Sequence record: NC_052655.1
Origin: Escherichia phage alia
DNA length: 64,000 nucleotides
Direction: 5' to 3' (one strand)
Part shown: positions 5,971-60,127 of the stretch, piece after piece
Layout of the letters: each line of letters starts with the position of its first letter
Position numbering within the stretch: the first letter of the stretch is position 1
Translations under genes and position numbers: made by a program
The notes under the pieces: generated by a model
What the model saw: only the letters and a program-made list of their open reading frames with translations
What the model was told of the DNA's origin: nothing
Databases searched by the model: none

Positions 5971-6387
5971 ATGCTATTAGACCAATTTACTCTCCTTGAT
6001 CTAACAACGTATCAGGGTCGTAAAAGAACCTATGTTCAAGATCCTGATTCGCCAATTTCCAATATGGGTAATACAGTAGCATATGAAGACTTTACAATAG
6101 AGGCTGCAAGTTTGCAACCAATATCAGGTAGAACACTTCAAGCACTGCCAGAAGGATACAGATCTAAGGCACAATATAGCTTCTGGACAAAAACAGAAAT
6201 CAGAGGCATCCAGCAAGGATCAGATCAATTATCTGACCAAATACTAATAGATGGACAATGGTTTTCCATTTATTCTTTGAAAGACTGGACAAGAACATCT
6301 TTCTTAATACACACACATTGTGTTGCTATTCTAGATGACCAGAATAACACCTATTCATATTCTGAGGAGGGTGGTAATTTTGGCTAA
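5971..6387 (+). CDS. hypothetical neck / tail-completion protein
   Basis: 138 aa ORF with AGGAGA SD. Confidence 0.6.
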   Translation: MLLDQFTLLDLTTYQGRKRTYVQDPDSPISNMGNTVAYEDFTIEAASLQPISGRTLQALPEGYRSKAQYSFWTKTEIRGIQQGSDQLSDQILIDGQWFSIYSLKDWTRTSFLIHTHCVAILDDQNNTYSYSEEGGNFG

Positions 6388-7036
6388 TATCTATGAACAA
6401 ATTGAATTGTATGAAAATACGATATTATTAAATATCGCTAAGTTCTTACAAAGACTAGTGGGGCTTCCGGTTTATGTTATGGATAAACCATTTGTTAAAC
6501 CAACAACCCCATATCTGACATTACGTATTGTATCATCTGATGATTCAGGTGGTTGGTCACAAAAATATTCTTTTAGTGAAGATGCGTTTTCCTATCTAAT
6601 GGACAATAAGTATGAAATAGAACTTATGGCTTTTAGAGGAAGACCCATGACACTTTTAAGTTATGTTCTTGCGGCACTTCGTGGTGCAGATGAATTAAAA
6701 TACCAGTATCTTTATTCCAAAGGTATTAGCTTCTTATCTGCAACAAATGTTGCACAGGCTAACACTGTTCTGGATGGAGATAAAACTGAACAAAGAGCGA
6801 GAATATTTCTTACATTCAATACTACGATGGTTATTGAGGATTTAGTAACTACCGAAATTGAAGCAATTAATATGAACATTCATTCGTTCAGAGATGATTA
6901 CGATGATCCTACTCCAATAGATCTTCCTTTGGATAAGATTTACATTGTTGCTCACAGAAGTAAAACTTATTACTTTACGACGACTGATGATGGATCATTA
7001 ATTAAGTATATCCCAACGGATAATTCATTGGAATAA
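6380..7036 (+). CDS. hypothetical neck / tail-terminator-like protein
   Basis: TTG at 6380 lies 8 nt after GAGGAGGG and overlaps the upstream stop (TTGGCTAA). The track ATG at 6335 would overlap the previous gene by 53 nt and has no SD. Confidence 0.5.
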   Translation: MANIYEQIELYENTILLNIAKFLQRLVGLPVYVMDKPFVKPTTPYLTLRIVSSDDSGGWSQKYSFSEDAFSYLMDNKYEIELMAFRGRPMTLLSYVLAALRGADELKYQYLYSKGISFLSATNVAQANTVLDGDKTEQRARIFLTFNTTMVIEDLVTTEIEAINMNIHSFRDDYDDPTPIDLPLDKIYIVAHRSKTYYFTTTDDGSLIKYIPTDNSLE

Positions 7037-7056
7037 AGTTTCTAACAGGAGCATAA

Positions 7057-8463
7057 ATGGCAACTTTTCGTGATAAGGTAGTTTCCGTAACCCTTACCTA
7101 CGGTGCTACTTCAATTAGTGAAACACAGTTTGATATCCCTCTAATTCTTACAGGGCATAACGTTACTGGCAATCTTGTAGATTATTTCACTTCTTCAGAC
7201 GCACTTCTGCAAGCAGGTTTTGGCACTGCCGATCCAGCTTATAAAATGGCAAAACTACTATTTGACGGTCTGTTCGCACCAGAACAAGTTATCGTCGGTA
7301 AGCGTGATGTTTCTAAAACAACTCTAACTCCAGTAGTTGAAGATAGTGCAACTTACGTTATCACTATTAAAGCAAATTCAAAAAGCAAGGACTTCAAGTT
7401 TGTTGCCGATGATACTGCAACTGCTCAAGAGATTGTTGTTGGTTTAACAGAAATGATCAACGCAGACGTAGTGTATAAAGAATTTTTCACTGTGTCAAAC
7501 GATGGTAGTGTTATCACTGTAACCCCAGTTGCAGGTAAATACGCTACTATGGATAGTTCAGGATTCACAACTAAAGTAGAATATGCAAATGATATCTTAG
7601 AAGATATTGCTAAAATTGCAGACTATGAAAACAGTTGGTTCTGGTTACTATCTGATTCTCACGCAGAACAAGATATTATCGATCTAGCAGGTTATGTAGA
7701 AGAGCACGATAAAGTGTATTTCTTCTCTACCTCGCAACAAGGTGTTCTAACTAAAGAAGAAGATAACATTCTAGAACGCTTAGGTGATATGGGCTACAAT
7801 AACACTTGTATGGCATTGTGGATGACTAACGCTGATACAGTGTTCCCAGAGGCTGCTGTAGTTGGTTCTATCTGCTCTGCAACACCAGGTACTACTACCC
7901 TACATGGTAAAACCCTTGTTGGTATCGAGATTGAAAAACTTGGTCAGACAGCAGAAAACTTTATCGTTCAACAGAATGGTAATATTTACCGTAAAGAACA
8001 CGGTGTTCTGTTCTACCGTGATGGCTTCATGGTTAGTGGTTTCTATGTTGACTATGTGGTACACGCTCTGTGGTTCAAAGCTCGCGTAGAAGAATCTCTG
8101 TTCGCTCTATTCAAACAGCAATCTATGCTTGGTAGTGGTGTTAGAGCAACTTCTGCTGGTCTTGCTTTGATTCGTCAGGCTGTTACTGCAAACCCAATCC
8201 AAGTAGGTATTAACAATGGTTCTATTGCCAATGAGGTAGTAACTTCAGAGGAAACAGGACTTCTGGTAAGCCTTAAACCTACTATCTATATCCCATCTCG
8301 TGCAGATATGACTGATGCTCAAATCAATGCACGTTTGGTTGATGGTATGGTTATTGAATACGTATATGCTGGATTCTTCCACTATGTTAAAGTGCAGGTA
8401 AACGTTCTAACGAACCGCACTGCAAATAGCCAGAATTCCAATAGCTCTACTGTATCTTCATAA
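7057..8463 (+). CDS. tail sheath protein
   Basis: 468 aa ORF with CAGGAG SD, immediately upstream of a ~160 aa tube-like gene, the frameshifted chaperone pair and the tape measure gene (P2/Mu-like contractile-tail order). Confidence 0.7.
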   Translation: MATFRDKVVSVTLTYGATSISETQFDIPLILTGHNVTGNLVDYFTSSDALLQAGFGTADPAYKMAKLLFDGLFAPEQVIVGKRDVSKTTLTPVVEDSATYVITIKANSKSKDFKFVADDTATAQEIVVGLTEMINADVVYKEFFTVSNDGSVITVTPVAGKYATMDSSGFTTKVEYANDILEDIAKIADYENSWFWLLSDSHAEQDIIDLAGYVEEHDKVYFFSTSQQGVLTKEEDNILERLGDMGYNNTCMALWMTNADTVFPEAAVVGSICSATPGTTTLHGKTLVGIEIEKLGQTAENFIVQQNGNIYRKEHGVLFYRDGFMVSGFYVDYVVHALWFKARVEESLFALFKQQSMLGSGVRATSAGLALIRQAVTANPIQVGINNGSIANEVVTSEETGLLVSLKPTIYIPSRADMTDAQINARLVDGMVIEYVYAGFFHYVKVQVNVLTNRTANSQNSNSSTVSS

Positions 8464-8471
8464 TTAAAAGC

Positions 8472-8489
8472 AGCGGGGGAAACCCCGCT
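8472..8489 (+). terminator. hairpin after sheath gene (GAAA loop)
   Basis: AGCGGGG-GAAA-CCCCGCT perfect 7-bp stem; the downstream U-tract is weak (TATATG), so this may be a partial terminator. Confidence 0.45.
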
Positions 8490-8521
8490 TATATGAAAAG
8501 TAGTATAAAAGGAGATCCACT

Positions 8522-9001
8522 TTGGATAAAATGCTTACTGGCGTAATGGCCTATGATCCTTCTCAAGTAATCCTGTCTTTGGGTGGTTGGGAACCTTGGG
8601 GTTTCGCCGCAGATACCAAAATTGTTATTAACAAAACTAACGATATCATCAACCCATATTCAGGTACTGATGGTGACGTTTCCTTGGCGCTTAGTCGTAA
8701 CCGTTTAGGTACGCTAACAATGTCACTGCAACGTACTTCCCCAGCAAACGAAGTTCTTGCTGCTTATGCACAAACGATGTATTCTACTCGTCAAGTAGCA
8801 TTTAGCGTATATCTAGAAGACCCTCGCGGATATTATATCAGCACAATTGGTTGGATTCAAAGTCAACCGGACGACACTATTGGTGAAACTATTCAAGAAA
8901 ACCAATGGGTAATTGGTCTTAAAGATGCAAGCCTACTTCGTTCTACTGTAGGTGTTGGTGTTAACGCACTTAACTCTATTAGTGCTCTAACTATTCAGTA
9001 A
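8522..9001 (+). CDS. tail tube protein
   Basis: 159 aa ORF; TTG at 8522 is 7 nt after AAGGAGA. Sits between sheath and chaperone genes and is followed by a strong terminator. Confidence 0.7.
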   Translation: MDKMLTGVMAYDPSQVILSLGGWEPWGFAADTKIVINKTNDIINPYSGTDGDVSLALSRNRLGTLTMSLQRTSPANEVLAAYAQTMYSTRQVAFSVYLEDPRGYYISTIGWIQSQPDDTIGETIQENQWVIGLKDASLLRSTVGVGVNALNSISALTIQ

Positions 9002-9005
9002 CAAA

Positions 9006-9030
9006 AAGGGCAGAAATGCCCTTTATTTTT
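9006..9030 (+). terminator. intrinsic terminator after tube gene
   Basis: AAGGGCA-GAAA-TGCCCTT stem followed by TATTTTT. Confidence 0.7.
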
Positions 9031-9044
9031 AAAGAGAGGAAATA

Positions 9045-9527
9045 ATGGAACAACAAAAAGATAATACTATTGCAAAATTTGCTCGTCCAGAAGTAATGGT
9101 TGAAATTGATCTGGATGAAGGACGCAGTGTAAAATTTAGAGTTCTCAAGTGGAGTCCAACTAAAGTTTTTGAAAGGATTCCAGAACTAGGTAGTGTACTA
9201 GCTGTTCCTATGACAATGTATAATACTGCTCTTATGTCAGCAGACGAAGATCTAGAAGCTCGTATTGCTATGGCACTGATCCAATTATTCAGTGGTCTGG
9301 AAGAAAAAAACTTAGCCGCATTCTTACGTAAAATTTTAGATGAAGTTTACACAGAAGCAGGTCATAGTGTTTCCGATAATTTTGATGAATTGTTTTTTGC
9401 TCACCCAGAATTAGTTGTTGACTTAGCTGCAAAAGTTCTTGAGGTGAACTATGCCCCTTTTTTCAAACGAGGTTTCGGAAAACTGTTGACCCAATTTCAA
9501 GGAATAGAGACTCTAGCGAAGAGTTAA
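9045..9527 (+). CDS. tail assembly chaperone (G-like, short product)
   Basis: 160 aa ORF with AGAGAGGAAA SD, directly upstream of the tape measure gene; its 3' end overlaps a second open frame. Confidence 0.65.
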   Translation: MEQQKDNTIAKFARPEVMVEIDLDEGRSVKFRVLKWSPTKVFERIPELGSVLAVPMTMYNTALMSADEDLEARIAMALIQLFSGLEEKNLAAFLRKILDEVYTEAGHSVSDNFDELFFAHPELVVDLAAKVLEVNYAPFFKRGFGKLLTQFQGIETLAKS

Positions 9528-9802
9528 GTCCGGCAATTAAATCAGCAATTGAAATTGCCTCACAAACCCTTAGCTTGACATGGTATGAAGTAATTCTTTG
9601 TAAGGTAATTAAGAATACCTCCGAAACCTTGTCCTCGTTAGATAATTACGGTGTAGATTATCTACTTAAAATTTATGAATATTTAACATTTGAAGACTAT
9701 GTACAAGATCTTCACGTTAAAGATGCGGATATTAAACGTGGTCAACAGAGAACAATAAGAGAACTGGATACGGCTATGAAAAAATTAATTCCAGATTCAT
9801 AA
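9045..9802 (+). CDS. tail assembly chaperone, predicted -1 frameshift fusion product (GT-like)
   Basis: The -1 frame is open from 9449 to 9802 and overlaps the end of the 9045..9527 ORF. Slippery heptamer T_TTT_TTC at 9458-9464 is in the zero frame. Predicted junction peptide ...YAPFFQTRFRK... Confidence 0.5.
9458..9464 (+). other. candidate -1 ribosomal frameshift slippery site (U UUU UUC)
   Basis: X_XXY_YYZ heptamer with zero-frame codons TTT (9459-9461) and TTC (9462-9464); both Phe tRNAs can re-pair on UUU UUU after a -1 slip. Confidence 0.5.
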
Positions 9803-9821
9803 GTAATACGGAGGATTACCC

Positions 9822-11801
9822 TTGTTAGAAATTAACACTTCCAAGATTAAGAATACAGTAACGTTTACTGTAGATAAAGACAGTTTAAAAAATACTAAAG
9901 ACGCAATTAAAAACCTTAAAACTTTTACAGAATCTATTGAACCATCTTTAAATATGACTAAAATGCGTCGTCAGTTTAAAAGTATGGAAGAGTATGCTAA
10001 AAGAATAAGGCAGCAAATGTCAGGTCTTGGCGGCGGTAATCCTCCACCAATCCCACCAACCGGAGGTTCAAGTGGTGGTGGAAAAGGAGGAAGTGGTAGA
10101 GGTGGTTCTGGATCTTCTGGAGGACGTAAGACACCGGAGGAAAGAGCCGCAGAAGCCGCCGCTAAACGTGCAGCACTTGCTAATATGAAGCAAGATGATT
10201 TTAGTTTTAAAGCTATGCCTTTTACAAAAGCAGACAGCAGAATTCTAGAAAAATCTAAAAAGATTGTAGAAGAAACTGTTGAACTTTATCGTAAAGGTGT
10301 GATTACTAGCCAACAAATGAACAATACTTTGGCTAGACAGTTAGAAGAACTACGCAGATCTCATAGAGAGAAGAATGCACAACTTCTTGATGAAGAGAGA
10401 GCTAGACGTAGAATTGCCCGTCTGCAAGAAGCAGAAGATAAAAGAAGACAGCGTGTTCGAGAAAGAGAAAGAAAGGAGTTCGAACGTCAGCAAAGGAGAG
10501 AAAAAGAAGCAAGACAGCGAGATAGACAACGTAAGCTATCTGGTGTAGGTAATGCTGCTATTGCTCTTAACCCTGCTATGTTTGGTGCTGCTCTTTTAGG
10601 TGCTGGTTTATATCAAGGTATAAGCAAAATAGCTGAAAGTATCACAACTGCGGCAGAACGTATTAATATGGTTAGTAAAGGTGGTCAGAACGTACAGGTA
10701 AACCCTAATGCAATTTTAACAATGCGTACTTGGGGTGAGATGAACGGTGTAGACTCTGCCAGCATTATTAAAGCAATTGACAATATTAAAGACGTTCGTG
10801 AACGTTTAGGTAATACTGTACTCCACTCTGAATTTGATGAAAAATCAGGTAAATGGAAAGGTGGAGATAGTGGTATTAATGAAATCATGAACCAATTTGG
10901 TTGGTCGAAAGAAGATGTTGCTAAATTCCAGAACAGACCTTTAGACTTTGTTCAAGCACTTGTTAATGAAGGTCAAAAAAGAGGAATGAACTCCGCGCAA
11001 ATTGGTCGTTTGATGGAAAACCTTGGTGATGACTTAATGCACTACCAACGTATGTTTTTGGATAACGGTAAAGAGTACATGAAAGTCTTGGATATGTTAA
11101 AAAATTCAGGAGCAACTCTTAACGATGAAAACATCAAAGCAGCACAAGATTTTGTTAAGCTAAGAGCACAAATTAGTGCAGCAGGAGAAGGTTTTACCAA
11201 TAACTTACTTATAGGATTTATGGATGGTTTAAAATCTGCACCAGATTTTGCAGAGAATATGAAAACTTTCCAAGAAGCTGCTCGTGGTCTTGGTGAAATG
11301 TCTGGTAGTATTGTAAGTAGCCTTGCAAAAATTGCGAAATATTTCCTTGATTTTTCAAATAAGGTTGGGCCAAAAAACAATACTAAAGAAGCTGTAAGAG
11401 ATTATTATAATGGCACGCAGTATGGGTACGATGCACAGGTTGGTGGTAATCCTTGGGCTTATTGGCCTATTGGAAGAGATCAACATAAACCTGAAAATCA
11501 ACCTTTAGGTGACTTTGATAGTAGTTTCTTAACTAGTGCCTTAAACCCAAGTGCTTCTAGTATCGGTTACAATAGACCTGATTTAACAGCATCTATGCTA
11601 ACACCACGCCAAGGTGTTCCAGTACCATTAAGTGTAGAGAATACGGTTGTTATCCCAGACAACGCATTCCAGATTAATGTTATTCCAGATGGCTATGGTT
11701 TTAGTAATTATCTAGATGCGACAATGAATACCAGTTTTAGTAACTTCTCACAAGGTTTAACTCTTCAGTTAAGCAGTGGACAATCTTCTACTGGTGGTTA
11801 A
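9822..11801 (+). CDS. tail tape measure protein
   Basis: 659 aa ORF; TTG start 7 nt after GGAGGA. Gly-rich N-terminal tract, highly charged Arg/Glu coiled-coil segment (RRRIARLQEAEDKRRQRVRERERKEFERQQRREKEARQRDRQRK), hydrophobic central segment. Follows the chaperone pair. Confidence 0.8.
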   Translation: MLEINTSKIKNTVTFTVDKDSLKNTKDAIKNLKTFTESIEPSLNMTKMRRQFKSMEEYAKRIRQQMSGLGGGNPPPIPPTGGSSGGGKGGSGRGGSGSSGGRKTPEERAAEAAAKRAALANMKQDDFSFKAMPFTKADSRILEKSKKIVEETVELYRKGVITSQQMNNTLARQLEELRRSHREKNAQLLDEERARRRIARLQEAEDKRRQRVRERERKEFERQQRREKEARQRDRQRKLSGVGNAAIALNPAMFGAALLGAGLYQGISKIAESITTAAERINMVSKGGQNVQVNPNAILTMRTWGEMNGVDSASIIKAIDNIKDVRERLGNTVLHSEFDEKSGKWKGGDSGINEIMNQFGWSKEDVAKFQNRPLDFVQALVNEGQKRGMNSAQIGRLMENLGDDLMHYQRMFLDNGKEYMKVLDMLKNSGATLNDENIKAAQDFVKLRAQISAAGEGFTNNLLIGFMDGLKSAPDFAENMKTFQEAARGLGEMSGSIVSSLAKIAKYFLDFSNKVGPKNNTKEAVRDYYNGTQYGYDAQVGGNPWAYWPIGRDQHKPENQPLGDFDSSFLTSALNPSASSIGYNRPDLTASMLTPRQGVPVPLSVENTVVIPDNAFQINVIPDGYGFSNYLDATMNTSFSNFSQGLTLQLSSGQSSTGG

Positions 11802-11836: not shown

Positions 11837-11839
11837 GTC

Positions 11840-11916: not shown

Positions 11917-12627
11917 ATGGCAGCAAACACTCCAGAACAACACGTTCAAGCGGTTTATAAAGCGGAACAAGATATAAATTCTACAAAAAACACAAATAAC
12001 TCTGCCTCTACTGTGAAAGGGGAGAATGGTTTTTGTATTTTAGCAAGTATTTACAACAGTGCAAGTGATCAATATATTCAAAATTACCAAGCTATAGTTT
12101 TTGATGCTGTTCCAAATATAGGTGTAAAACGTCAAGCAGATGTTACTAGTTATCCTGTAGAAAATGGAGCTAATGTATCGGATCACGTTCAAGTTAAAAA
12201 TAATACTTTCTCTTTATCAGGAATGATTACAGAGACACCTGTAAGATTAATGCGAGATATGCTATATAGTGCTGGTGTTAACGGTACTCGTATCAGTCAA
12301 GCAATTACTTACTTAGATAAAATATTTGATGAAAGACAGCCTATCATTTTAATAACAGAACATAAGGTGTATGAGAATGTTATTTTGAAAGGCATATCAT
12401 ATGAATATCAAACAGAATATGCGATGCAATTTGACTTGGAATTTGAACAAGTAAGATTAGTTTCCTACGGGGAAACAAATGCTATTGCACTTAAGACAAA
12501 ACCAAATAAGAATACAGGTGTTAAAAACAAGAAAGGTACTAGTCCAGATGCTGATTTGGATGCAAGAACAGGGAAAGCAACTGGTACAGAACATCTTAGT
12601 GATCACAGTGCAGATGGTAAAAAATAA
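11917..12627 (+). CDS. hypothetical tail / baseplate protein
   Basis: 236 aa ORF with AAGAGG SD, first gene after the tape measure gene. Confidence 0.5.
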   Translation: MAANTPEQHVQAVYKAEQDINSTKNTNNSASTVKGENGFCILASIYNSASDQYIQNYQAIVFDAVPNIGVKRQADVTSYPVENGANVSDHVQVKNNTFSLSGMITETPVRLMRDMLYSAGVNGTRISQAITYLDKIFDERQPIILITEHKVYENVILKGISYEYQTEYAMQFDLEFEQVRLVSYGETNAIALKTKPNKNTGVKNKKGTSPDADLDARTGKATGTEHLSDHSADGKK

Positions 12628-12638
12628 GGAGAAAATTT

Positions 12639-13058
12639 TTGGCTATTTCATCTTATTCAAAGATCAGTAGAAGCACATCTAATAGTGGCTACAATGCAGT
12701 ATTTATTGATCGAAATTTAGGTTATTATTCTTGGTACTTACCTACAGAACAGTACCCAGACCAAACATATACGGTAACTCTCGATGGAGTAGATTATGAT
12801 ATACGTTTGAGATGGAATACAAGAGATCAAGCGTGGCAAATGCAATTAGGATTATCAGGAGACAATCCTAGTGTAACTTTTAAAGTAACCAATGGTTTAG
12901 ATCTTCTAGAACCATATAAGTATATAGAATCTGTGCCGGATGGTCAACTTTATTTGGTAGATACTGTTAAAATAAACGGTAGACCTAATTACTATGACAC
13001 AGGTGTAGATAAAAGATTTGCTTTGGTTTATATCGACGCTCTTCCATATCAAGCATGA
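12639..13058 (+). CDS. hypothetical tail / baseplate protein
   Basis: TTG start 6 nt after AAGGAGA; 139 aa. Confidence 0.5.
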   Translation: MAISSYSKISRSTSNSGYNAVFIDRNLGYYSWYLPTEQYPDQTYTVTLDGVDYDIRLRWNTRDQAWQMQLGLSGDNPSVTFKVTNGLDLLEPYKYIESVPDGQLYLVDTVKINGRPNYYDTGVDKRFALVYIDALPYQA

Positions 13059-29730: not shown

Positions 29731-29745
29731 AAAAGGAGTAGTAAA

Positions 29746-41479: not shown

Positions 41480-41489
41480 ATTTTTCTCC

Positions 41490-43262: not shown

Positions 43263-43274
43263 ATGATTCTCCTA

Positions 43275-43544
43275 CTAAAATGATTCGTTTGTCTCCATAA
43301 TATATTGCATTTCCAAATCTTCCATATGTTTCTTAAATTGGTAAACAATTTCCGATGGGGAAATATCTATATCAAAAAGTTCTTTTGTACCAGAATAAAA
43401 CCTAATACCATCAACAATAAGACCACCATAATAATCCCAATCACTTTCTCGTGAGAAAGGATTAGGTTCTTCATAATAGTAATCTACTTCAACAATAATA
43501 GGTTCTTTATTATCTTGTTTATACTCAAAATCAAAAGTGTTCAT
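43275..43544 (-). CDS. hypothetical protein
   Basis: 89 aa; start overlaps the upstream stop (TAATG). Confidence 0.5.
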   Translation of the reverse strand: MNTFDFEYKQDNKEPIIVEVDYYYEEPNPFSRESDWDYYGGLIVDGIRFYSGTKELFDIDISPSEIVYQFKKHMEDLEMQYIMETNESF

Positions 43545-44499: not shown

Positions 44500-45474
44500 T
44501 TAAAGACTTTCAATAACTTGACGACGCAGTTCATTGGCATCTGCAAGATTATAATTAAGACGAACGTGTTCTGCAAGCATCATACCACGATCTTCTGTGT
44601 ATCTAGGGTTCCTCATTAGCTTGACAACTTCATAATGCCAAGATGCTTTAGAGTCTGCATAGATAACAGCCTTTGCATCTACCGGATTGAAGTACGGCAG
44701 CACAGGAGAACAGATAATAGGAAGACCCTTTGCACCTGCTTCCAAAATCTTCAAATTGCTTTTACAGTTGTTGAAGTCATTATCTACCAGGGGAGCAATT
44801 GCAATACTGTGACCGTCATACACAGACATATACTCACCTAAATTTTTAATAGCTGGTTTATACTGTGCATTTGGAATTTTACGTTTTATTTTAACCCACT
44901 CCGCAGTAGTTAGATACTGACTATTATTTCCAACAGGTGCAGAAGGATACACTTCATACCCTGCAATTGTCAATAGTGTATCATCAAATGTATTAGCTAC
45001 AAGAGATAAATCAGGCTCATGGCTTGCTCCTCCAGCCCAGATAATAGGTGTGTCAGAACTACGGTCTTTTGTCAAAGTAAATTGACCTTCGTCGTAAGGT
45101 AGTGCGTTTCTAATTACGACAACATTACGATTTAAATGACGAATTTTGTAAGCTAGGTATTCTGTTGTTACAGTAACAACATCTGCTAACTTAACCATCT
45201 CTACAATAGTCTTTGAATGATTAGTAAATACGCCAGCCATATAATGTTCAGGATTAAGTGAATAAAAATCATCTAAATCAACAATAATCTTAACACCTTG
45301 TGCCTTCAGGCGTTTAACCTCGTCTGCTCCACGAGAATACACTCTATTAAAAACTAAAACGTCTTTCTTAGGTTTAAACGTATTTCCAGCAAATGGCATT
45401 ACAATACGATGGTAATCACAACCACTGCCTAACTTATTATCACACTTAAGTACAGGAGTATTAGGATTTACCAT
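44500..45474 (-). CDS. glycosyltransferase (GT-B-like), paralog 2
   Basis: ATG at 45474 preceded by GAGGAGG; this start aligns with the paralog N-terminus (the track start at 45513 has no SD). Confidence 0.55.
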   Translation of the reverse strand: MVNPNTPVLKCDNKLGSGCDYHRIVMPFAGNTFKPKKDVLVFNRVYSRGADEVKRLKAQGVKIIVDLDDFYSLNPEHYMAGVFTNHSKTIVEMVKLADVVTVTTEYLAYKIRHLNRNVVVIRNALPYDEGQFTLTKDRSSDTPIIWAGGASHEPDLSLVANTFDDTLLTIAGYEVYPSAPVGNNSQYLTTAEWVKIKRKIPNAQYKPAIKNLGEYMSVYDGHSIAIAPLVDNDFNNCKSNLKILEAGAKGLPIICSPVLPYFNPVDAKAVIYADSKASWHYEVVKLMRNPRYTEDRGMMLAEHVRLNYNLADANELRRQVIESL

Positions 45475-46147
45475 ATTTTTGAGCCTCCTCATAAGAGATA
45501 AAAGTTTTACCATTGCGAAGATCCTCCAGGGATTGTTTATATTGTTCCCAGTTTACACCAATCCCCTGTTCTTTCTCTTCTTTTGACAGATTCGCAAAAG
45601 GTAAAGGATTGTCTCCAAATACATCATCAGGATGGATAAACGCCATAATTCGAATAGGACATGGCACGCCTTGAATACCTCGGTTCAAACCTGCCAGTGG
45701 AACGCGATGAATCCACTCTGCATCTTCATATCCATAACCGTGGGTGTATGAGCGGAAATAGCCAGCTTTCTCAATAACTGCACGGGAATACATACCAAAC
45801 TGGCACATACCTAGTTCCCAAATAACCACTTCCCCTTCAATACCTTTTACTTTATCTTTAAAGTATTCAGGCATACCAAAGAAATCCCAACCATTTTCCT
45901 TCGCCTGTTTTACAAAATATGTTTCCCAACCTTGAACAACAGGATAGCAATCATCATCAAAAATAAACCAGTAATCATACCCTTCATCATAAAACTTTTT
46001 CATCAGTTCATTACGAGCATATGCAACACCTTTTCGCTCCCGATCATACTGCACAACAAAAGTAGCATTAGGATCAGTCACAAGATAATCTTTAAGAGGA
46101 CGCTTACCTACAGTAATAACACCAACACCAATTTTTGTATTTTCCAA
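45461..46147 (-). CDS. glycosyltransferase (GT-A-like, DxD motif)
   Basis: 228 aa; TTG start after AAGGAG; DxD-containing FIFDDDCYP. Confidence 0.55.
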   Translation of the reverse strand: MENTKIGVGVITVGKRPLKDYLVTDPNATFVVQYDRERKGVAYARNELMKKFYDEGYDYWFIFDDDCYPVVQGWETYFVKQAKENGWDFFGMPEYFKDKVKGIEGEVVIWELGMCQFGMYSRAVIEKAGYFRSYTHGYGYEDAEWIHRVPLAGLNRGIQGVPCPIRIMAFIHPDDVFGDNPLPFANLSKEEKEQGIGVNWEQYKQSLEDLRNGKTFISYEEAQKYGKS

Positions 46148-46156
46148 AATAACTCC

Positions 46157-46720
46157 TTAAATAATTTTATTCATGTCTTGACAATGTAAAAGGTGTGAAA
46201 TAGCTTTTCTAGGATCATCATTACCTAAACGGTATGTGTGAAATAAATATAACCCACGTAGTAAACCTAGCCTTTTATTGTTAGCGTGCAATGCTTTAGA
46301 GAAAATTATATCAAACTGTATTGATCTTTCCTCAAAAGGGATTTCATTCCACAGACTCTTACGAAAGAGAAGAAAGAATCCTGCTAAGATAGCATCTGTA
46401 GGTACTTCCTCTATTGAGTTTCCCCATTCTAGATGTGCTCTTTTTGCAATCTCAATGTGGTGTAATATATTTGGATCTTCACTTCTTTCATTATTAAATA
46501 ATTGATATGTTGATCCCAATCTATTACAAGATGCACCAAGAACATCAAAATCAGGATTTGAACGGACTATTGATTCCAGCCAAGCAGGTTGTTCTGGAAG
46601 AAGAAACATTGTATCAATGTCTCTTAGGCAAATCCAACTATCTTCTGGTAAAACACTTATTGTGTCATTGATACCTTTTCCAATATCTCCAGAAAGATAG
46701 GGAGTTATGTGAAATATCAT
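46157..46720 (-). CDS. putative glycosyltransferase (GT-A-like)
   Basis: 187 aa; GGAGGGAG SD; LRDIDTMF DxD-like motif. Weaker assignment. Confidence 0.4.
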   Translation of the reverse strand: MIFHITPYLSGDIGKGINDTISVLPEDSWICLRDIDTMFLLPEQPAWLESIVRSNPDFDVLGASCNRLGSTYQLFNNERSEDPNILHHIEIAKRAHLEWGNSIEEVPTDAILAGFFLLFRKSLWNEIPFEERSIQFDIIFSKALHANNKRLGLLRGLYLFHTYRLGNDDPRKAISHLLHCQDMNKII

Positions 46721-47468: not shown

Positions 47469-47978
47469 TTAGCGATAGAATTGATGTTCTTTGTAGCGGT
47501 ACACTAGAACCATATCTTTTTCCCAGTGTGCTCTTATTGTAGATTTTTTAAAGTATAATGCTCCTTTTGTAATATCTAATGCAATTCGTAATTCTGGAAA
47601 ATGCGTATCGAGATAAAGTAGACGTTCTGCTATAGCCTTAGCTTCCTTCCACTTATCACGTTCCATAACGTTGAATGTCTTTGTGTAAGAGAATTGTCCT
47701 TTTTGAAACAAAACTTCTTTTATAGTATCAGGGAAATATGAATCTCTAGCCCTATTCAATACTACATTACCAACAGCAGACATACCGCGCTTTCCTTGAT
47801 TACGACTTTCTGCATAGATTGCACAAGCTAATAGATTTTCTTTACTATCACGCTTTGTACACTTGTGAACTACTTTAGCAGTTTTTACGTTTGCAGCTTC
47901 GGCTTGCGCCACGACAGGTGTAAATGTAAAAGCAGTTAAGGATAGTAACGCAATTGCGACAAAGGTTTTTATTGACAA
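47469..47978 (-). CDS. secreted cell-wall hydrolase (SleB-like), endolysin candidate with signal peptide
   Basis: TTG start 5 nt after AGGAGG. N-terminal signal peptide (MSIKTFVAIALLSLTAFTFTPVVAQA); motif CAIYAESRNQGKRGMSAVGNVVLNR resembles the SleB-type cell-wall hydrolase family. Confidence 0.6.
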   Translation of the reverse strand: MSIKTFVAIALLSLTAFTFTPVVAQAEAANVKTAKVVHKCTKRDSKENLLACAIYAESRNQGKRGMSAVGNVVLNRARDSYFPDTIKEVLFQKGQFSYTKTFNVMERDKWKEAKAIAERLLYLDTHFPELRIALDITKGALYFKKSTIRAHWEKDMVLVYRYKEHQFYR

Positions 47979-48071
47979 ACTTGCCTCCTATTTTGTTAAA
48001 CGAACTTTTATTGTAACACAGAAGAGGCTGTTTTGCAAGTGGAGGGGGGATAATCCCCCTCTTACACCCTG

Positions 48072-50191: not shown

Positions 50192-50461
50192 TTATTTCTC
50201 CTTTCTGAGTGTAATGTTAGTAACTTCTAAATCCACTTCTACCATTTCTGTATCATATGAAATACAGCTAAGTTGACCTCTTTGTGAACCGTTCAGACAC
50301 ATTGCTTGGTTTGTATTAACTTTAATAAACACTAAGTTTCTGAACGTATCTAAACCAGAATCTTGATACGCAACATAATATACAAATGTATCACCTGCAT
50401 CAAGTTCTCCAAAACATTTAGGTTCATCTGATTCGTCGTCTTTGATATTAAATTTAAGCAC
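50192..50461 (-). CDS. hypothetical protein
   Basis: 89 aa; GTG start after AAGGAGAAG; stop is 1 nt before the vWA start. Confidence 0.5.
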   Translation of the reverse strand: MLKFNIKDDESDEPKCFGELDAGDTFVYYVAYQDSGLDTFRNLVFIKVNTNQAMCLNGSQRGQLSCISYDTEMVEVDLEVTNITLRKEK

Positions 50462-51017
50462 TATCTTCTCCTTTACCTGCTCTCAAGCCTAAATAGAAAG
50501 CCTCTCTGGTGATCTTTTGCAACTCGTTTAAAGAGATAGTTACAACTAAATCATCTTCAATTTCTAGCTTTGAGTCTTCTTCTGTCTCAATGCAAGTATT
50601 ATGCACTTTGTGGTAAGGATTGTCAACACGTTTAAATTTATTATTTTCAGTGCTGAAGAAGCAATCTGGATCTTCTTCCCCATCACCCCAACCCTGGTTA
50701 GGATCTTCTTCAGATCTTTCTGTTGGGATCTCGCCTGTAAAGTGCTCTTCTAATACCAGAGCAATCCCATCTCCAAGATCGGAAGAGAACATCAAATTAC
50801 AAACTTCTTCCCAAGGCATAGACCACTTAAATCTTTTACGATTGCCATGTTTATCTTCTTCGTTAGAGAAAACACTACCATAGCTATCATAATTCCCATA
50901 CATCTCTTCGATAACCTTACCACCTTTCAAAAGAAATAGGTAGCAAGGAGAGCCATCGAAAGAGGTAGAAAGAGCAGCATTACCAGACTCTTTGCACAAG
51001 AAACTAAAACATCCCAT
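50454..51017 (-). CDS. hypothetical acidic protein
   Basis: 187 aa ORF coupled to its neighbours. Confidence 0.5.
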   Translation of the reverse strand: MGCFSFLCKESGNAALSTSFDGSPCYLFLLKGGKVIEEMYGNYDSYGSVFSNEEDKHGNRKRFKWSMPWEEVCNLMFSSDLGDGIALVLEEHFTGEIPTERSEEDPNQGWGDGEEDPDCFFSTENNKFKRVDNPYHKVHNTCIETEEDSKLEIEDDLVVTISLNELQKITREAFYLGLRAGKGEDSA

Positions 51018-53495: not shown

Positions 53496-54086
53496 TTAAC
53501 GACGACGTGAGCTACTAAAACTACGTTTCGACGAAGAATAACTTTTCGAAGACTTACTATAAGAGCTAATAGGACTTGAGTAAGACTTACGAGCAGAGTA
53601 ATCACTATTCACTTTTGTTGTTGATGGGCGTGAATACGTTTGTACACTTTGCTGCTTAATTGTGTTTTGTTTAGTGGTTGTATATGTATTTACAGGTTTA
53701 TCATAAAAACTACGCTTTTGTGTTGTATATGATTTACTGTTAGTTGTAGGAGCAGCATTGTTATTAATAATGGTTGTGTTGCTACCACCATCTCTATAAC
53801 CACCACCGCCACTATTACCACTCAACATATGACCAAGAAGCATACCTGTAGCAAAGTCACCTACACCAGAAGAACCACTACCACCTCCTTGCACAACAAC
53901 TGTGGAAGGTTGTGCAGGTGCTGCTTGAACAACTTGAGGTGCAGGTTGATTTACATATTGTTCATCTACCATCTGATTTGGTGTTTGTTGGTAACGTTGA
54001 TTTTGTACATTTTCAGAATCATCACAACCTACCAGCAATGCACTACCTAAAACAACTGCAACAATAAAAGATTTAATGTTTTTCAT
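53496..54086 (-). CDS. lipoprotein with Ser/Thr/Tyr-rich low-complexity C-terminus
   Basis: ATG at 54086 preceded by GAGAGGG. Lipobox LLVGC after a hydrophobic signal sequence; Gly-rich tract; long S/T/K/Y-rich tail. Confidence 0.55.
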   Translation of the reverse strand: MKNIKSFIVAVVLGSALLVGCDDSENVQNQRYQQTPNQMVDEQYVNQPAPQVVQAAPAQPSTVVVQGGGSGSSGVGDFATGMLLGHMLSGNSGGGGYRDGGSNTTIINNNAAPTTNSKSYTTQKRSFYDKPVNTYTTTKQNTIKQQSVQTYSRPSTTKVNSDYSARKSYSSPISSYSKSSKSYSSSKRSFSSSRRR

Positions 54087-54279
54087 TTGTAACCCTCTCA
54101 TTTAAAGTCTCAACACAATTTTTAAAATCCCTAGAGAAACAATACATCTGTTCTCCGTTCCTGTTGATAGTAATTGTATGGTTATCAATATATGTTGTCA
54201 AGATAAAAATCAAACAAAATAACCCTAAAGCAAAACAAATATTTTCAAACAGAATCCAAAGAACACGTAAAACCACCAT
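54073..54279 (-). CDS. small hydrophobic membrane protein
   Basis: 68 aa; hydrophobic stretch VLRVLWILFENICFALGLFCLIFIL; overlaps the lipoprotein start by 14 nt. Confidence 0.4.
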   Translation of the reverse strand: MVVLRVLWILFENICFALGLFCLIFILTTYIDNHTITINRNGEQMYCFSRDFKNCVETLNERVTNEKH

Positions 54280-55852: not shown

Positions 55853-56569
55853 TTATTTCAGTTTGTAAACAATTACATTTAAACCTTTGTTCACTAGAGT
55901 TTCTTCGATCATAAGTTTTACAATATTCCAAGAACCTCCAGCCAAACCACAACCAAGCATTGGTAAACCTACAATTTTACCGCCTGAAGATACAACATCG
56001 TCTCCCATACTATCTAACGCATTGTAGATAGCTTCATAATTCAGGTCACGCTTACCTTCCTCACGACGACTATAACCATATTGTCCATATAAATTATAAA
56101 TTGTCAAATTGTTTTCTGTATATTTGGTAAACGTACCTAATTTTTTATAATCACCACGTTTAGTGGCACAATCTGCTTTAAACGCACCAGGCCACTTGCT
56201 TTTAATTTTTGGTGCAATACCACTACCCATAGTGCAAAAACAGTTACAGCAGTGTGCTATAGCGTCTATATCGCCTCTCTCGGCTGCTGCTAAAAGATCA
56301 CCGTATACCTCAATGATACCTGCCGGATAACTTGTTACAATTTCATCTTCCCAATACATTTTCTCTACACCACCGATCAGTGCAAAGTTTTGTGTAATGC
56401 GATCATCAATATAGTTAAGACCTGAAACATACACAGCGTATTCATCCTGTGCTGTAATACCTTGCACACGAATTCTTAAGACACCATCTTTATCTGTTGC
56501 TACACGCCCAAAATCTTTTTCTGTAATATTGGTGATAGGATCTCCGAAAGTCATTACTTTATTAGACAT
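55853..56569 (-). CDS. macro-domain protein (ADP-ribose binding / processing)
   Basis: ATG at 56569 preceded by AAAGGGGA and overlapping the upstream stop (ATGTCTAA). Motif DAIAHCCNCFCTMGSGIAPKI fits the macro-domain H..N.......G.G.A pattern. The track start at 56686 would overlap the upstream gene by 125 nt. Confidence 0.6.
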   Translation of the reverse strand: MSNKVMTFGDPITNITEKDFGRVATDKDGVLRIRVQGITAQDEYAVYVSGLNYIDDRITQNFALIGGVEKMYWEDEIVTSYPAGIIEVYGDLLAAAERGDIDAIAHCCNCFCTMGSGIAPKIKSKWPGAFKADCATKRGDYKKLGTFTKYTENNLTIYNLYGQYGYSRREEGKRDLNYEAIYNALDSMGDDVVSSGGKIVGLPMLGCGLAGGSWNIVKLMIEETLVNKGLNVIVYKLK

Positions 56570-57419
56570 AATAATCCCCTTTAACATTAGGTTTGTTGAT
56601 AATGTTGCTTTCAAAAAATTGACGTAGGAAATCAAAGTTCTCTTTGTATTTTTCAATGTTATTGTAACCTTCTGCAAGGCAACCAAAGAACAGTTGTTCT
56701 ACATAATACAAAGGAAGTTGTGAAAGTGCAATTTTAAAATCAACTTCGCTTTGACTCATTAGATACTTAATAGGACGAACCAAACATTTAGCATCAGCTT
56801 CTTGCTTAATCATTTTAATAAAAGCTGCCAGATTATTGATATAGTTGAAGTTAAGTGCAGCTTCGGTGTTGGCTTCTGTACCTTCATACTTTGCAAAGTA
56901 CAGGAAAAACGTATCGTTTTCAACACCTTCTTTGTCTAAAATTTCAATAAGTTTTTCTTCGTGTGTTCCTGTAATATTAACATCATCAATGAAAATCAGA
57001 GTTTTATTACCCCAGAAATCACGATTGATAGAGAAAGTGTCACCATCGATCAAAGCCTTACGATCTTCTTTGCTAAGAAATCCATAATCATTGATATAGC
57101 TCACTTTACGATGAACGATATCCCACTCCACTGCTTTACCCCCTTTGATAGAGATTAGGTAGTTGAGGTGATCTACAAAATGTTCAGATAACACTGTAGC
57201 TGCATTTTTCACATAGTTATATGGAGATGGAATAACAACAAAACTTTCATTTACCAGTCGTTCTTCATACTTAGAAAAGAAACTTTCAGCCAGAATGCGT
57301 CCCATTCTTTTTGCTGCCTGGTTACTACCAAACTTCAGTTTGGAATAATCTGCAATGTTAAATTTTGCTTCCTTCAGGTTAGTAAAAGTATTAGCAAAAT
57401 GTTGAATTTGATTACGCAT
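56562..57419 (-). CDS. type I phosphoribosyltransferase-fold protein
   Basis: 285 aa; AAGAGGAA SD. PRPP-binding-loop-like motif KTLIFIDDVNITGTHEEK. Substrate unknown. Confidence 0.45.
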   Translation of the reverse strand: MRNQIQHFANTFTNLKEAKFNIADYSKLKFGSNQAAKRMGRILAESFFSKYEERLVNESFVVIPSPYNYVKNAATVLSEHFVDHLNYLISIKGGKAVEWDIVHRKVSYINDYGFLSKEDRKALIDGDTFSINRDFWGNKTLIFIDDVNITGTHEEKLIEILDKEGVENDTFFLYFAKYEGTEANTEAALNFNYINNLAAFIKMIKQEADAKCLVRPIKYLMSQSEVDFKIALSQLPLYYVEQLFFGCLAEGYNNIEKYKENFDFLRQFFESNIINKPNVKGDYYV

Positions 57420-58068
57420 TAATAAGTTCCTCTTTTTTAAGTTTAGCCAACAAGTCTTCTGGATTAATAATATGACAGAACTTCATCCCTATGTCAACAG
57501 CTTTCCCATCATAGATCAAACTATCTCCAACGTGTAAAATCTCCTCTGGTGCGAGATCAAACGTTACCATTTCATCAAAAGAGAGTTTAAAAAACCTGGG
57601 ATCTGGTTTACACAAGCAAAACTCATCAGAAAAATGCATAAAATCGAATGGTAATTTTGTCAAGCCAGAATATACAGCTAAGAAACTACCAGGTACAAAA
57701 TTGGTATTGCTTTTAATACTCAAAGAATAGGTTGAACTTAGCTCTTCCAACTTCTTGCAAAGTTCAGGGTTTAATATTGGAGGATGTTTTATAAACATTG
57801 CTAAACAGTCTCTTTTTAACCCATCTACTTTATCAAGATCAATGTTCAAATGAGCAGAAAGTGTTTCCCAAGCATTTCTAGATGTTCCACAAATGCCTTT
57901 TTCTGCTTTTAAATCCAGGAGAGTTTTTACCTCTTTATATACGGTAGCTGCTTCTGCCTCAGAACAAGAGGCATACTCGGCAATAACCTTGTTGCGCTCT
58001 TCTGCATACAAAGGATTAGCAGTAATAAGAGTATTCCATACATCAAAAGAAATATGCTTAACAGTCAT
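57412..58068 (-). CDS. HAD-superfamily hydrolase (phosphatase candidate)
   Basis: ATG at 58068 preceded by GGAGGA. HAD motif I FDVWNTL (DxD-type nucleophile) and motif IV HVGDSLIYDG. Its stop overlaps the PRTase start by 8 nt. Confidence 0.6.
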   Translation of the reverse strand: MTVKHISFDVWNTLITANPLYAEERNKVIAEYASCSEAEAATVYKEVKTLLDLKAEKGICGTSRNAWETLSAHLNIDLDKVDGLKRDCLAMFIKHPPILNPELCKKLEELSSTYSLSIKSNTNFVPGSFLAVYSGLTKLPFDFMHFSDEFCLCKPDPRFFKLSFDEMVTFDLAPEEILHVGDSLIYDGKAVDIGMKFCHIINPEDLLAKLKKEELINA

Positions 58069-58070
58069 TT

Positions 58071-58226
58071 TTAATCCTCCGTCCAAAAGAATATCATCTG
58101 CTTAATTTTATTGATTTCTTGATGTAGTAACTTTCCAGCATGTGATTGATCTTTAATATTGACAGCAAGAATTTCAAGTTCCGTTAGTTTTTCTTGGATA
58201 GCTTTATATTCATCATCTGTAAGCAT
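58071..58226 (-). CDS. small hypothetical protein (51 aa), not in ORF track
   Basis: ATG at 58226 preceded by AAAGGGGAAG; stop lies 2 nt before the HAD start. Translation MLTDDEYKAIQEKLTELEILAVNIKDQSHAGKLLHQEINKIKQMIFFWTED. Confidence 0.3.
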   Translation of the reverse strand: MLTDDEYKAIQEKLTELEILAVNIKDQSHAGKLLHQEINKIKQMIFFWTED

Positions 58227-58447: not shown

Positions 58448-58469
58448 AAAGGAGGCTTTCGCCTCCTTT
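58448..58469 (-). terminator. intrinsic terminator after ATPase gene (GAAA loop on minus strand)
   Basis: AAAGGAGGC-TTTC-GCCTCCTTT on the plus strand; on the minus strand it is followed by ATTTATA. Confidence 0.5.
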
Positions 58470-58475
58470 TATCAC

Positions 58476-59636
58476 TTAGTAAGAACGACCACCAAACACA
58501 TACTCTGTGTAGTTTTTACGTTCTTTGTTTTTAATAACAACTTCAATGTTGTTACCTTTATCATCGGTGAACATAAAGTGATAACCGTCACCACCCATTG
58601 TACGGATGTGTTTTTCATCATACGTCAGCAAGATACGGTCTACACCCCAGTAGTAGTCACCTTCTTCATCTTTATCTTCTACGGTAACAATCCCTTCCAT
58701 TTCAGGAAGATGCTCTTCACCTAGTTTATGGTCTACAGCTACAACATAACGATTACCGCTAAACAAACCTTGTGCTGTCATACCGTCAATATCGGTATCT
58801 GCCGAAACATCTCCTGTACGATCTACACCGTTAACTTTCAGAAGTTTAACCTCTTTTGCAGCATAGCGGTGTTCAGTAATACTGATACCCATTAATGCAA
58901 GTGCATCAGAGAATTTGTCATTAGGATAACGGTTAAGTTCTTCTACTAATGACTGAACAATATCAAAGTTCAAGTCCACGGACAGATTATAAAGCGTTTC
59001 AAAATCTGGTAAAAAGGCTTTGTTCTCCAGATTTTTAGCCAGATAATCATCCATAGTAGCTTTAGGTAGTTTCTTATAGCTAAAGCTGTAGAAAATACGG
59101 CTAGGGCGATTACGCAAAAATTCTGATACATAACCATCATTTTTAGTCAATACAAACAGCTTGTCATAGCCACCAACACCATCCAGCAGGGTAAGCAAAC
59201 CATCCTGTGCATCTTTTTCAGCATACAGTTTATCAAATTCATCGATCATAATCATCACAGGTTGTGTGATTTTAGACATAAAATTGATAAAGCCTTCACC
59301 ATTAAAAGCACTACCGATAGAAATAGTAGGAATACCCATTTCACGAAGAGCAGAAGACAGCATTTTAGCTTGCAAAGTTTTACCGCTACCCTTCGTACCC
59401 TCAAGGAGAACACCTGTGTTTTTACCTTTGCGGCTAAGGAACGTCTTGATAATACGTTCTGATTTATCATCAGTATCACCGTATGTTACTGAAGGGACTT
59501 CCATATCGTTTTTAGGATACAGGAAGAACTCACCACTTTGAGTAACACCTACACCAAAAGTTCCTGCTGGAATTTCTTCGATATCTGTACCAGACTTCTG
59601 ACGCAGGAAGATTTGATTGCCGAATACTGTAAACAT
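58476..59636 (-). CDS. P-loop NTPase / AAA-type ATPase
   Basis: 386 aa; GAGGAGAAA SD. Walker A LLEGTKGSGKTLQAK and Walker B-like VMIMIDEFDKL. Confidence 0.6.
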   Translation of the reverse strand: MFTVFGNQIFLRQKSGTDIEEIPAGTFGVGVTQSGEFFLYPKNDMEVPSVTYGDTDDKSERIIKTFLSRKGKNTGVLLEGTKGSGKTLQAKMLSSALREMGIPTISIGSAFNGEGFINFMSKITQPVMIMIDEFDKLYAEKDAQDGLLTLLDGVGGYDKLFVLTKNDGYVSEFLRNRPSRIFYSFSYKKLPKATMDDYLAKNLENKAFLPDFETLYNLSVDLNFDIVQSLVEELNRYPNDKFSDALALMGISITEHRYAAKEVKLLKVNGVDRTGDVSADTDIDGMTAQGLFSGNRYVVAVDHKLGEEHLPEMEGIVTVEDKDEEGDYYWGVDRILLTYDEKHIRTMGGDGYHFMFTDDKGNNIEVVIKNKERKNYTEYVFGGRSY

Positions 59637-59656
59637 AGTTTTCTCCTCTATTTAAT

Positions 59657-60127
59657 TTAGTCAGATTCCCAAATGTTGTCTTTCTTAATCCACATTCGTT
59701 GATTATCTGAACCTCTATAACGTTTCGTTGTTGGTTGATTCATATCATACTTACCATCTATCACTATGTCAACCAGTTTTTTAATTTTTTCTGGAATTTC
59801 TTCAAAAAGATATCCTGTATATAAGACAATATCTTTTTTGTTTCCAAAACAATCTCTTACCTTCTCAAGAACATACTCTACAGTGTCAATGTTCTCTTTG
59901 TCAAGAGGTTCACCACCTAAAACTGTTAATCCTTTAATGAAAGGTCGAGATAAATCTTTCAAGATAAGATCTAATGTTTCAGTAGTGAACTCTTGTCCGT
60001 AGTTATACGACCAGGCTTTCTGGTTGAAGCAGCCACGGCAACCGTGGCTACAACCGCTCACCCACAAAGAGCATCTTACACCGTCACCGTTGAGCATGTC
60101 AACAGGTTCATATCCGGCATAATTCAA
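59657..60127 (-). CDS. nrdG: anaerobic ribonucleotide reductase activating protein (radical SAM)
   Basis: 156 aa; TTG start overlapping the nrdD stop (TTGA) after AAGGGAG. Radical-SAM cysteine motif CSHGCRGC. Directly downstream of nrdD. Confidence 0.75.
   Translation of the reverse strand: MNYAGYEPVDMLNGDGVRCSLWVSGCSHGCRGCFNQKAWSYNYGQEFTTETLDLILKDLSRPFIKGLTVLGGEPLDKENIDTVEYVLEKVRDCFGNKKDIVLYTGYLFEEIPEKIKKLVDIVIDGKYDMNQPTTKRYRGSDNQRMWIKKDNIWESD

Follow-up and report, generated by a model that had tools for sequence, protein, structure and literature searches.

Location and context of the start sites

The stretch analysed here, referred to as the window, comprises 64,000 nucleotides of Escherichia phage alia (NC_052655.1), and the subject of this work is where translation of its genes begins. 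Eleven genes of the window appear to start with GTG or TTG, and eight others at an ATG inside the longest open reading frame (ORF). By megablast, the 64-kb window was placed among the phi92-like E. coli phages (genus Justusliebigvirus). Phage vB_Eco_J-01 (J-01) is 97.8% identical over window positions 15,000–35,000, and AV123, BME3 and phi92 are 99.1–99.3% identical over positions 1–14,000; the Phapecoctavirus group (phAPEC8, ESCO13), Klebsiella phage KP13-26 and Citrobacter phage Tr1 show ∼76–78% identity to the window. The gene order corresponds to phi92 gp121–gp196. The guanine-plus-cytosine (GC) content is 38% overall (35–41% in 2-kb steps), and no transfer RNA (tRNA) genes were found in the 64 kb. 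The low GC content and the many TTG starts would also suit the chromosome of a low-GC Firmicute, an origin that the megablast matches to coliphages rule out.

Genes are located on the plus strand up to position 34,566 and on the minus strand from 34,602. According to annotated records, the plus arm holds the structural module (portal, protease, scaffold, capsid, neck, sheath, tube, tape measure, baseplate and fibres) and the minus arm the genes for replication, a glycosyltransferase, lysis and nucleotide metabolism. The two arms converge at 34566–34602; the GC skew is positive until ∼34 kb and negative from ∼36 kb, and this change of sign at the convergence indicates that in this phage the skew goes with the coding strand. 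Since the window derives from a phage of E. coli, the host translation system is that of E. coli.

Shine-Dalgarno signals and conservation at the 19 sites

The proposed codon is present at all 19 coordinates: GTG at 1892, 29746, 43262 and 50461; TTG at 6380, 8522, 9822, 12639, 46147, 47978 and 60127; and ATG at 1410, 4527, 41479, 45474, 54086, 56569, 58068 and 61923. Duplex energies between the Shine-Dalgarno (SD) and anti-SD sequences (in kcal/mol) were calculated in 67 ORFs, at each in-frame codon among the first 80 that could serve as a start. The background for these scores consisted of 6,612 non-start ATG, GTG and TTG triplets on both strands of the window, 4,485 being GTG or TTG. A purine-rich SD sequence (AGGAG, GGAGG, AAGGAG and similar) precedes each of the 19 starts at a spacing of 5–9 nt, with energies of −5.5 to −12.6 kcal/mol. 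For 10 of the 11 non-ATG sites the values were −7.3 to −12.6 kcal/mol, corresponding to an empirical P of 0.0004–0.019 against the background GTG and TTG triplets, that is, the top 0.04–1.9%; an energy of −8.2 or lower is reached by just 1.2–1.5% of these triplets. The internal start has the better SD sequence than the upstream codon for all eight shortened ORFs and also for the pair 6335 and 6380, the tightest contests being 45513 (−9.3) versus 45474 (−12.3) and 1398 (−4.0) versus 1410 (−6.3). A stronger SD sequence as compensation in the genes with a non-ATG start was not seen, as their SD strength did not differ from that of the ATG genes (Mann-Whitney p = 0.46).

The same sites were compared with the homologous 64 kb of phi92, J-01, phAPEC8, KP13-26 and Tr1, to which 31 loci from IMG/VR were added, taken from the neighbourhood of the tube, endolysin and nrdG genes. 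Orthologues were found by tblastn and the codon-phased context was read at each site; counts given below refer to distinct contexts, and the relatives that bear on the start calls have 36–90% protein identity. Similarity to the relatives begins at residue 1 of the proposed proteins nearly everywhere. In the window, in-frame stops are present 4–7 codons upstream at 8 of the 11 non-ATG sites and 12–17 codons upstream at 6380, 29746 and 60127, and no other in-frame start lies between stop and start, 6380 excepted. Eight of the non-ATG codons (1892, 8522, 9822, 12639, 29746, 46147, 50461 and 60127) have ATG as their counterpart in some relative, either at that very position or next to it; those at 6380, 43262 and 47978 are invariant. 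In all eight shortened ORFs, the relatives either lose the upstream start or carry stops or frameshifts in the extension. Four of the queried proteins had no match to any NCBIfam family, which limited the profile-based checks of the N-terminus to NrdG, NrdD and a HAD-like hydrolase.

SD strength and spacing, the comparison with relatives and the family profiles agree on the 19 sites and support a single reading of them. We put the probability at about 0.9 that these are ordinary SD-led initiation sites of a tightly packed, AT-rich coliphage genome. An earlier note, made from the letters of the window, had named the 11 GTG and TTG codons as the best-supported starts of their genes and the eight internal ATGs as preferable to the longer forms, and both proposals are borne out by the SD scores and by the relatives.

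Non-ATG starts in the structural arm

The scaffold-like gene (phi92 gp122 homologue, 1892..3007, plus strand) starts with GTG, preceded by AAGGA with a 6-nt spacer (SD and start, 1877..1894). Its start position is occupied by GTG in seven distinct contexts from relatives and by ATG in three distant ones, and the window and the five divergent relatives closest to it have stops 5–7 codons before the start. The tail terminator gene (gp129 homologue, 6380..7036, plus strand) starts with TTG behind the SD sequence AGGAGGGTGG (SD and start, 6362..6382), and shares 8 nt with the gene before it, at TTGGCTAA. The SD energy is −12.6 for TTG 6380 versus +0.9 for ATG 6335. The TTG is kept in 12 of 12 distinct contexts, down to 53% amino acid identity; a stop lies five codons upstream in the most distant contexts, and the upstream ATG (6335) is absent from Tr1. 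The product, with the predicted N-terminus (M)ANIYEQI, matches Pfam Phage_tail_terminator_9.

The tail tube gene (gp131 homologue, 8522..9001, plus strand) has a TTG start with AAGGAG at a 7-nt spacer (SD and start, 8507..8524). The corresponding codon is TTG in six distinct contexts and ATG in five, with a stop 2–7 codons upstream in every one. The N-terminus predicted from TTG 8522 is (M)DKMLTGV, (M)DKMLTGVMAYDPSQ, and that from ATG 8531 is MLTGV. The sequence of PDB entry 21vm_A (phi92 gp131) is identical over 159 amino acids to the TTG-start tube protein, and with solved tail tube structures from related phages the alignment begins at its residue 3 and leaves 3–5 of their own residues ahead.

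For the tape measure gene (gp134 homologue, 9822..11801, plus strand) the TTG start follows GGAGG with a 7-nt spacer (SD and start, 9807..9824). TTG is found at this position in seven contexts, with stops 5–12 codons upstream, and in the most distant relatives an ATG precedes the aligned position by 1–2 codons. After the TTG, the next ATG in frame comes 44 codons further on. The baseplate plug gene (gp136 homologue, 12639..13058, plus strand) starts with TTG after AAGGAG, again with a 7-nt spacer (SD and start, 12624..12641). Here ATG was found in four contexts from relatives and GTG in KP13-26, and in phAPEC8 and the relative L028 the start is a GTG two codons downstream. The predicted product begins with (M)AISSYSK and matches Pfam Pam3_gp18; the PDB chain 21vq_E has 139 amino acids. 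Further along the plus strand, a tail fibre gene (gp151 homologue, 29746..31707) has a GTG start with AAGGAG and a 7-nt spacer (SD and start, 29731..29748), which is ATG in phAPEC8 and TTG in Tr1, both with stops 1–2 codons upstream.

Non-ATG starts in the minus arm

All genes of this section are read from the minus strand. The primase/helicase gene (41490..43262) starts with GTG, preceded by AGGAG with a 6-nt spacer (SD and start, 43260..43277). GTG was found in 9 of 9 contexts (shifted by one codon in three of them), with stops 1–6 codons upstream. A glycosyltransferase-like gene (45461..46147) has a TTG start behind TAAGGAG with a 5-nt spacer (SD and start, 46145..46162); its position is ATG in phAPEC8 and the relative L035, and in the window a stop lies four codons upstream. 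The gene for a SleB-like endolysin (47469..47978) starts with TTG after AGGAGG, also with a 5-nt spacer (SD and start, 47976..47993). TTG is present in 10 of 10 distinct contexts, and AAAGGAGG is kept in the nine divergent ones; the next in-frame ATG lies 65 codons downstream, and the product matches NCBIfam SleB. A gene for 89 amino acids (50192..50461) has a GTG start with AAGGAG and a 6-nt spacer (SD and start, 50459..50476), which is GTG in five contexts and, in one distant relative, ATG immediately after a stop.

The nrdG gene (59657..60127) starts with TTG, preceded by GGGAG with an 8-nt spacer (SD and start, 60125..60144), and this start overlaps the nrdD stop by 4 nt. The position is TTG in six contexts and ATG in three relatives. 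Residues 1–145 of NrdG from the TTG start align to positions 1–150 of NF008335, the model of the E. coli-type NrdG, and residues 2–147 to positions 1–152 of TIGR02491. As the alignment begins at position 1 of the profile, the 10 residues dropped by the start used in J-01 (60097) belong to the family.

Shortened reading frames

In the prohead protease gene (1410..1889, plus strand; Pfam Peptidase_S78_2) we chose ATG 1410 (SD and start, 1395..1412) over ATG 1398. In place of ATG 1398, KP13-26 has ATA and phAPEC8 has AAG, and both Tr1 and L028 have a stop there; the 1410 position is TTG in the distant group. For the gene at 4527..4877 (plus strand), ATG 4527 (SD and start, 4512..4529) was preferred to ATG 4509, the SD energies being −6.0 versus +0.9; ATG 4509 is confined to the closest group, and Tr1, KP13-26, L014, L016 and L028 have stops 1–9 codons upstream.

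The other six genes lie on the minus strand. For the gene at 41084..41479, ATG 41479 (SD and start, 41477..41494) was chosen over GTG 41608, with SD energies of −9.2 versus −0.9. In J-01 and L030 an insertion or deletion frameshifts the 41608 extension onto a stop four codons upstream of the 41479 position. For 44500..45474, ATG 45474 (SD and start, 45472..45492) was taken instead of ATG 45513, and Tr1 has ATG and AGGAGG at the 45474 position. ATG 54086 (SD and start, 54084..54101; gene 53496..54086) was chosen over ATG 54101 (−6.3 versus −2.7); the latter is GCG in KP13-26 and absent from L031 and Tr1, and ATG 54086 is kept in 5 of 5 contexts.

The macrodomain gene (55853..56569) has ATG 56569 (SD and start, 56567..56584) rather than TTG 56686 or ATG 56587 as its proposed start, with an SD energy of −7.8 versus +0.2 and +2.4. 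This start shares 8 nt with the gene before it, at ATGTCTAA. Tr1 is the sole divergent orthologue that aligns near the N-terminus, where it starts immediately after a stop; with so few divergent orthologues, support for this start is moderate. The product contains a macro domain (Pfam Macro), and its sole NCBIfam match, well below the cut-off, is the DarG antitoxin ADP-ribosyl glycohydrolase; a role in counter-defence against ADP-ribosylating systems would be speculative.

In the gene for a HAD-like hydrolase (57412..58068), ATG 58068 (SD and start, 58066..58083) was chosen over TTG 58086, with SD energies of −9.5 versus −2.3. ATG 58068 is kept in Tr1, phAPEC8 and L039, which have stops 7–8 codons upstream and no upstream TTG. 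HAD profiles start at residue 9–10 of the long form, which is residue 3–4 of the short form. For nrdD (60124..61923), ATG 61923 (SD and start, 61921..61938) was preferred to ATG 61953 (−9.5 versus −0.1), which is absent even from phi92 and J-01. A terminator-like hairpin, AAAGCCAGC-TTAAT-GCTGGCTTT with a T-run behind it, is located at 61965..61943 (minus strand) between the gene at 62013..62963 and nrdD, and the spurious ATG 61953 sits in its loop.

The earlier note had also stated that the longer forms of these eight ORFs overlap the upstream gene extensively. This is true in part, holding for three of the eight: 41608 (119 nt, with the primase/helicase gene), 56686 (125 nt) and 45513 (53 nt). 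Starts at 54101 and 58086 would give small overlaps of 29 and 16 nt, and the codons at 1398, 4509 and 61953 have no overlap at all, being intergenic and 59–84 nt downstream of the previous gene. ATG 6335, which the earlier note had dealt with among the non-ATG starts, would give a long form that overlaps the upstream gene by 53 nt.

Two further ORFs that were absent from its list are also too long: GTG 37802 (SD +0.2) and ATG 47228 (SD +0.3), for which ATG 37781 (SD −7.3) and ATG 47180 (SD −7.1), respectively, are the right starts. The short forms match phi92 gp158 and gp168.

Start-codon usage

Usage of start codons was counted over 73 independently initiated genes, that is, the coding sequences (CDS) of phi92 mapped onto the window plus one window-specific ORF, and amounted to 62 ATG, 7 TTG and 4 GTG. 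In E. coli, ATG, GTG and TTG account for 83, 14 and 3% of start codons (10.1101/063800). The description of non-ATG starts as frequent is not sustained by these numbers, as 11 of 73 (15%) is no different from the 17% of E. coli (binomial p = 0.76). Compared with the host, TTG takes a larger share (9.6% versus 3%, p = 0.006) and GTG a smaller one (5.5% versus 14%, p = 0.018), by which the TTG to GTG ratio is inverted (7:4 versus ∼1:5). The excess of TTG over GTG, a ratio of 1.75, is roughly accounted for by base composition, the T/G ratio of the coding strand being 1.42. In other respects the sites resemble SD-dependent GUG and UUG initiation in E. coli, that is, in the NUG codon, the SD sequence 5–9 nt upstream with its complementarity to the 3′ end of 16S rRNA, and the non-AUG share of 15%.

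Four of the seven TTG starts fall within seven consecutive tail genes, gp129–gp136 (6380–13058), namely those for the terminator, tube, tape measure and plug. This clustering (4/7 versus 3/66 elsewhere) gives a Fisher p of 0.001 for a comparison that was picked post hoc, and two of the four codons are ATG in relatives.

Comparison with existing annotations

All 19 proposed starts are CDS starts of the phi92 record FR775895.2, most of them with an annotated ribosome-binding site (RBS) motif. Phi92 has the same seven TTG starts, four GTG starts and eight short forms as the window. The 19 start calls are thus correct, but already part of an existing reference annotation. PDB chains of phi92 gp129, gp131 and gp136 (21vm_A, 21vm_D, 21vq_E) were deposited in the predicted lengths; the models come from a cryo-electron microscopy (cryo-EM) study of 2026 (PMC13450770). 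The papers on BME3 and rV5 make no mention of start codons.

Other public records differ. In J-01 (PQ438393.1) the starts are at 6335, at 8531, 36 nt inside the fibre gene (29782), at 45513 and at 60097. J-01 and JohannJBalmer (MZ501084.1) both use a 735-nt form of the macrodomain gene, homologous to ATG 56587, and JohannJBalmer has the long forms homologous to 45513, 54101, 37802 and 47228. Where these two annotations disagree with the starts proposed here, the latter are to be preferred. The long forms are the familiar over-extension error of the longest-ORF rule, in which an upstream in-frame NTG without an SD sequence is taken as the start, and this error is seen in J-01 and JohannJBalmer too; nothing in it is specific to the window.

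Mechanism and alternative explanations

By analogy with E. coli, the UUG and GUG starts of 11 of the 73 genes would be read by the initiator formylmethionyl-tRNA (fMet-tRNA) at reduced efficiency; in reporter assays GUG and UUG initiation reached 10–100% of the efficiency of AUG (10.1101/063800). The 30S subunit would be positioned by the strong SD sequence 5–9 nt upstream, as is established for initiation in E. coli. The eight ORFs that look too long are, on this reading, artefacts of the longest-ORF rule, which takes as starts chance in-frame ATG, GTG or TTG codons within the 3′-terminal part of the gene before or within a terminator between genes. Overlaps of 4–14 nt with the previous stop, as at 6380, 56569 and the nrdD/nrdG junction, are consistent with translational coupling.

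Several points weigh against reading the sites in this way. The SD sequence of GTG 1892 is modest (−5.5, P = 0.08, within the top 8% of the background). ATG 45513 has a good SD sequence of its own and is kept in L035, a lineage of 74% identity. The calls at 41479 and 56569 rest on few divergent orthologues. The sequences of PDB chains presumably follow the annotation and are then not independent evidence, and the accessible part of the text of PMC13450770 gives no residue ranges for the phi92 tail models. Experimental data from N-terminal mass spectrometry or initiation-site ribosome profiling (Ribo-seq) were not found in the literature.

In principle, upstream and internal starts could both be used in some genes. 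The likeliest case is 45513 with 45474, as GGAGG lies 8 nt upstream of ATG 45513, the codon is kept in phi92 and J-01 in addition to L035, and the long form is used in two public annotations (J-01 and JohannJBalmer). However, in-frame stops separate the 45513 and 45474 positions in phAPEC8, KP13-26 and L034, Tr1 starts at the latter, and all other long forms lack an SD sequence (+0.9 to −4.0). The extension also falls within the 3′-terminal codons of the upstream gene, which by itself could account for the retention of ATG 45513. Dual initiation is considered unlikely. It is very improbable that the downstream ATGs at 8531, 29782 and 60097 are the true starts and that TTG and GTG are mere sense or non-coding triplets. 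The CDS lengths of J-01 imply starts at the homologues of these three codons, and ATG is the intrinsically stronger initiator (10.1101/063800). However, neither 29782 (+0.7) nor 60097 (−3.3) has an SD sequence at a functional spacing, and 8531 would have to use the SD sequence of 8522, 16 nt away. Relatives have ATG exactly at the TTG and GTG positions, immediately after stops, and the codons between these positions and the downstream ATGs are conserved as protein, with residues 1–10 of NrdG matching the profile from its first position.

A different question is whether the non-ATG codons, taken as genuine starts, are kept by selection as weak initiators that hold down the dosage of low-copy tail parts and of lysis and replication enzymes. 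The invariance of the weak codons of the tail terminator, endolysin and primase/helicase genes would fit such selection, as would the clustering of TTG in the tail genes and the high share of TTG relative to E. coli. Against this, the test for the tail cluster was chosen after the data had been seen, 8 of the 11 sites turn to ATG in some relative, and the TTG to GTG ratio roughly fits the base composition. The tube protein also starts with TTG though it is needed in many copies (24 hexameric rings, or 144 copies per virion, in phi92; PMC13450770), and roughly half of the relatives have ATG in its place. Furthermore, the invariance of TTG 6380 can be explained by the overlap with the upstream gene, where the first T of this TTG falls at the middle position of a Phe codon. 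Selection for weak initiation is unlikely as an account of the non-ATG starts as a group. That the strictly conserved weak starts (TTG of the terminator and endolysin, GTG of the primase/helicase) and the TTG run of the tail genes were selected to limit or time synthesis is likewise improbable; if true, start-codon choice would be a conserved layer of dosage control in the Stephanstirmvirinae. Ordinary SD-led initiation therefore remains our preferred reading of the 19 sites.

Other features of the window

Phi92 annotates one more TTG start, that of gp133 (window position 9575, no RBS), which the earlier note had omitted. The ORF upstream of it (9045..9527, plus strand) is a tail assembly chaperone and matches Pfam Phage_TAC_15. 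The −1 frame is open at 9443..9802, from the last part of the chaperone ORF through the next ORF, and a slippery sequence C CCT TTT TTC is present at 9455–9464 (the CCCTTTTTTC site of gp132–gp133), invariant in the window, phAPEC8, KP13-26 and Tr1. The −1 frame of 119–123 codons is invariant in phAPEC8, KP13-26 and Tr1. The stretch 9443–9802 looks like the product of a G/GT-type −1 programmed frameshift of the tail chaperone. Given the chaperone ORF, the open −1 frame and the slippery site, TTG 9575 is probably not a start. The downstream part is annotated as a hypothetical protein in J-01 and as the separate CDS gp133 in phi92.

The window differs from phi92 in its tail-fibre genes, an intact nrdD, a shorter polymerase and an extra endonuclease-like ORF. 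The nrdD gene (60124–61923, minus strand) is one intact ORF here and is split into gp192 and gp193 in phi92, with a joined 'spliced variant'; the DNA polymerase (38414–40993, minus strand) has 859 amino acids here versus 1104 in phi92. From these two differences, phi92 seems to carry intervening sequences without counterpart in the window. The extra ORF of 198 amino acids (37790–38386, minus strand) has an ATG start with an SD energy of −8.2, and its neighbours are the DNA polymerase gene and the gp158 homologue. A counterpart was not found in phi92 or J-01, nor a match in Pfam. The ORF is 100% identical in JohannJBalmer and has more than 1,400 distant matches in the phage collection, mostly below 60% identity; among the remote matches listed, some carry the annotation HNH endonuclease. 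A mobile insertion of the homing-endonuclease type is the likely nature of this ORF.

Significance for the phage group

The 19 start calls raise no new biological question, and their value is in curation. For this group of phages it is the phi92 reference annotation, and not the longest-ORF rule, that sets the right gene starts, and in the public records of at least two relatives, J-01 and JohannJBalmer, several of the same genes have wrongly placed starts. Right N-termini matter where proteins of the tail, of lysis and of nucleotide metabolism are to be expressed or fitted into cryo-EM maps.

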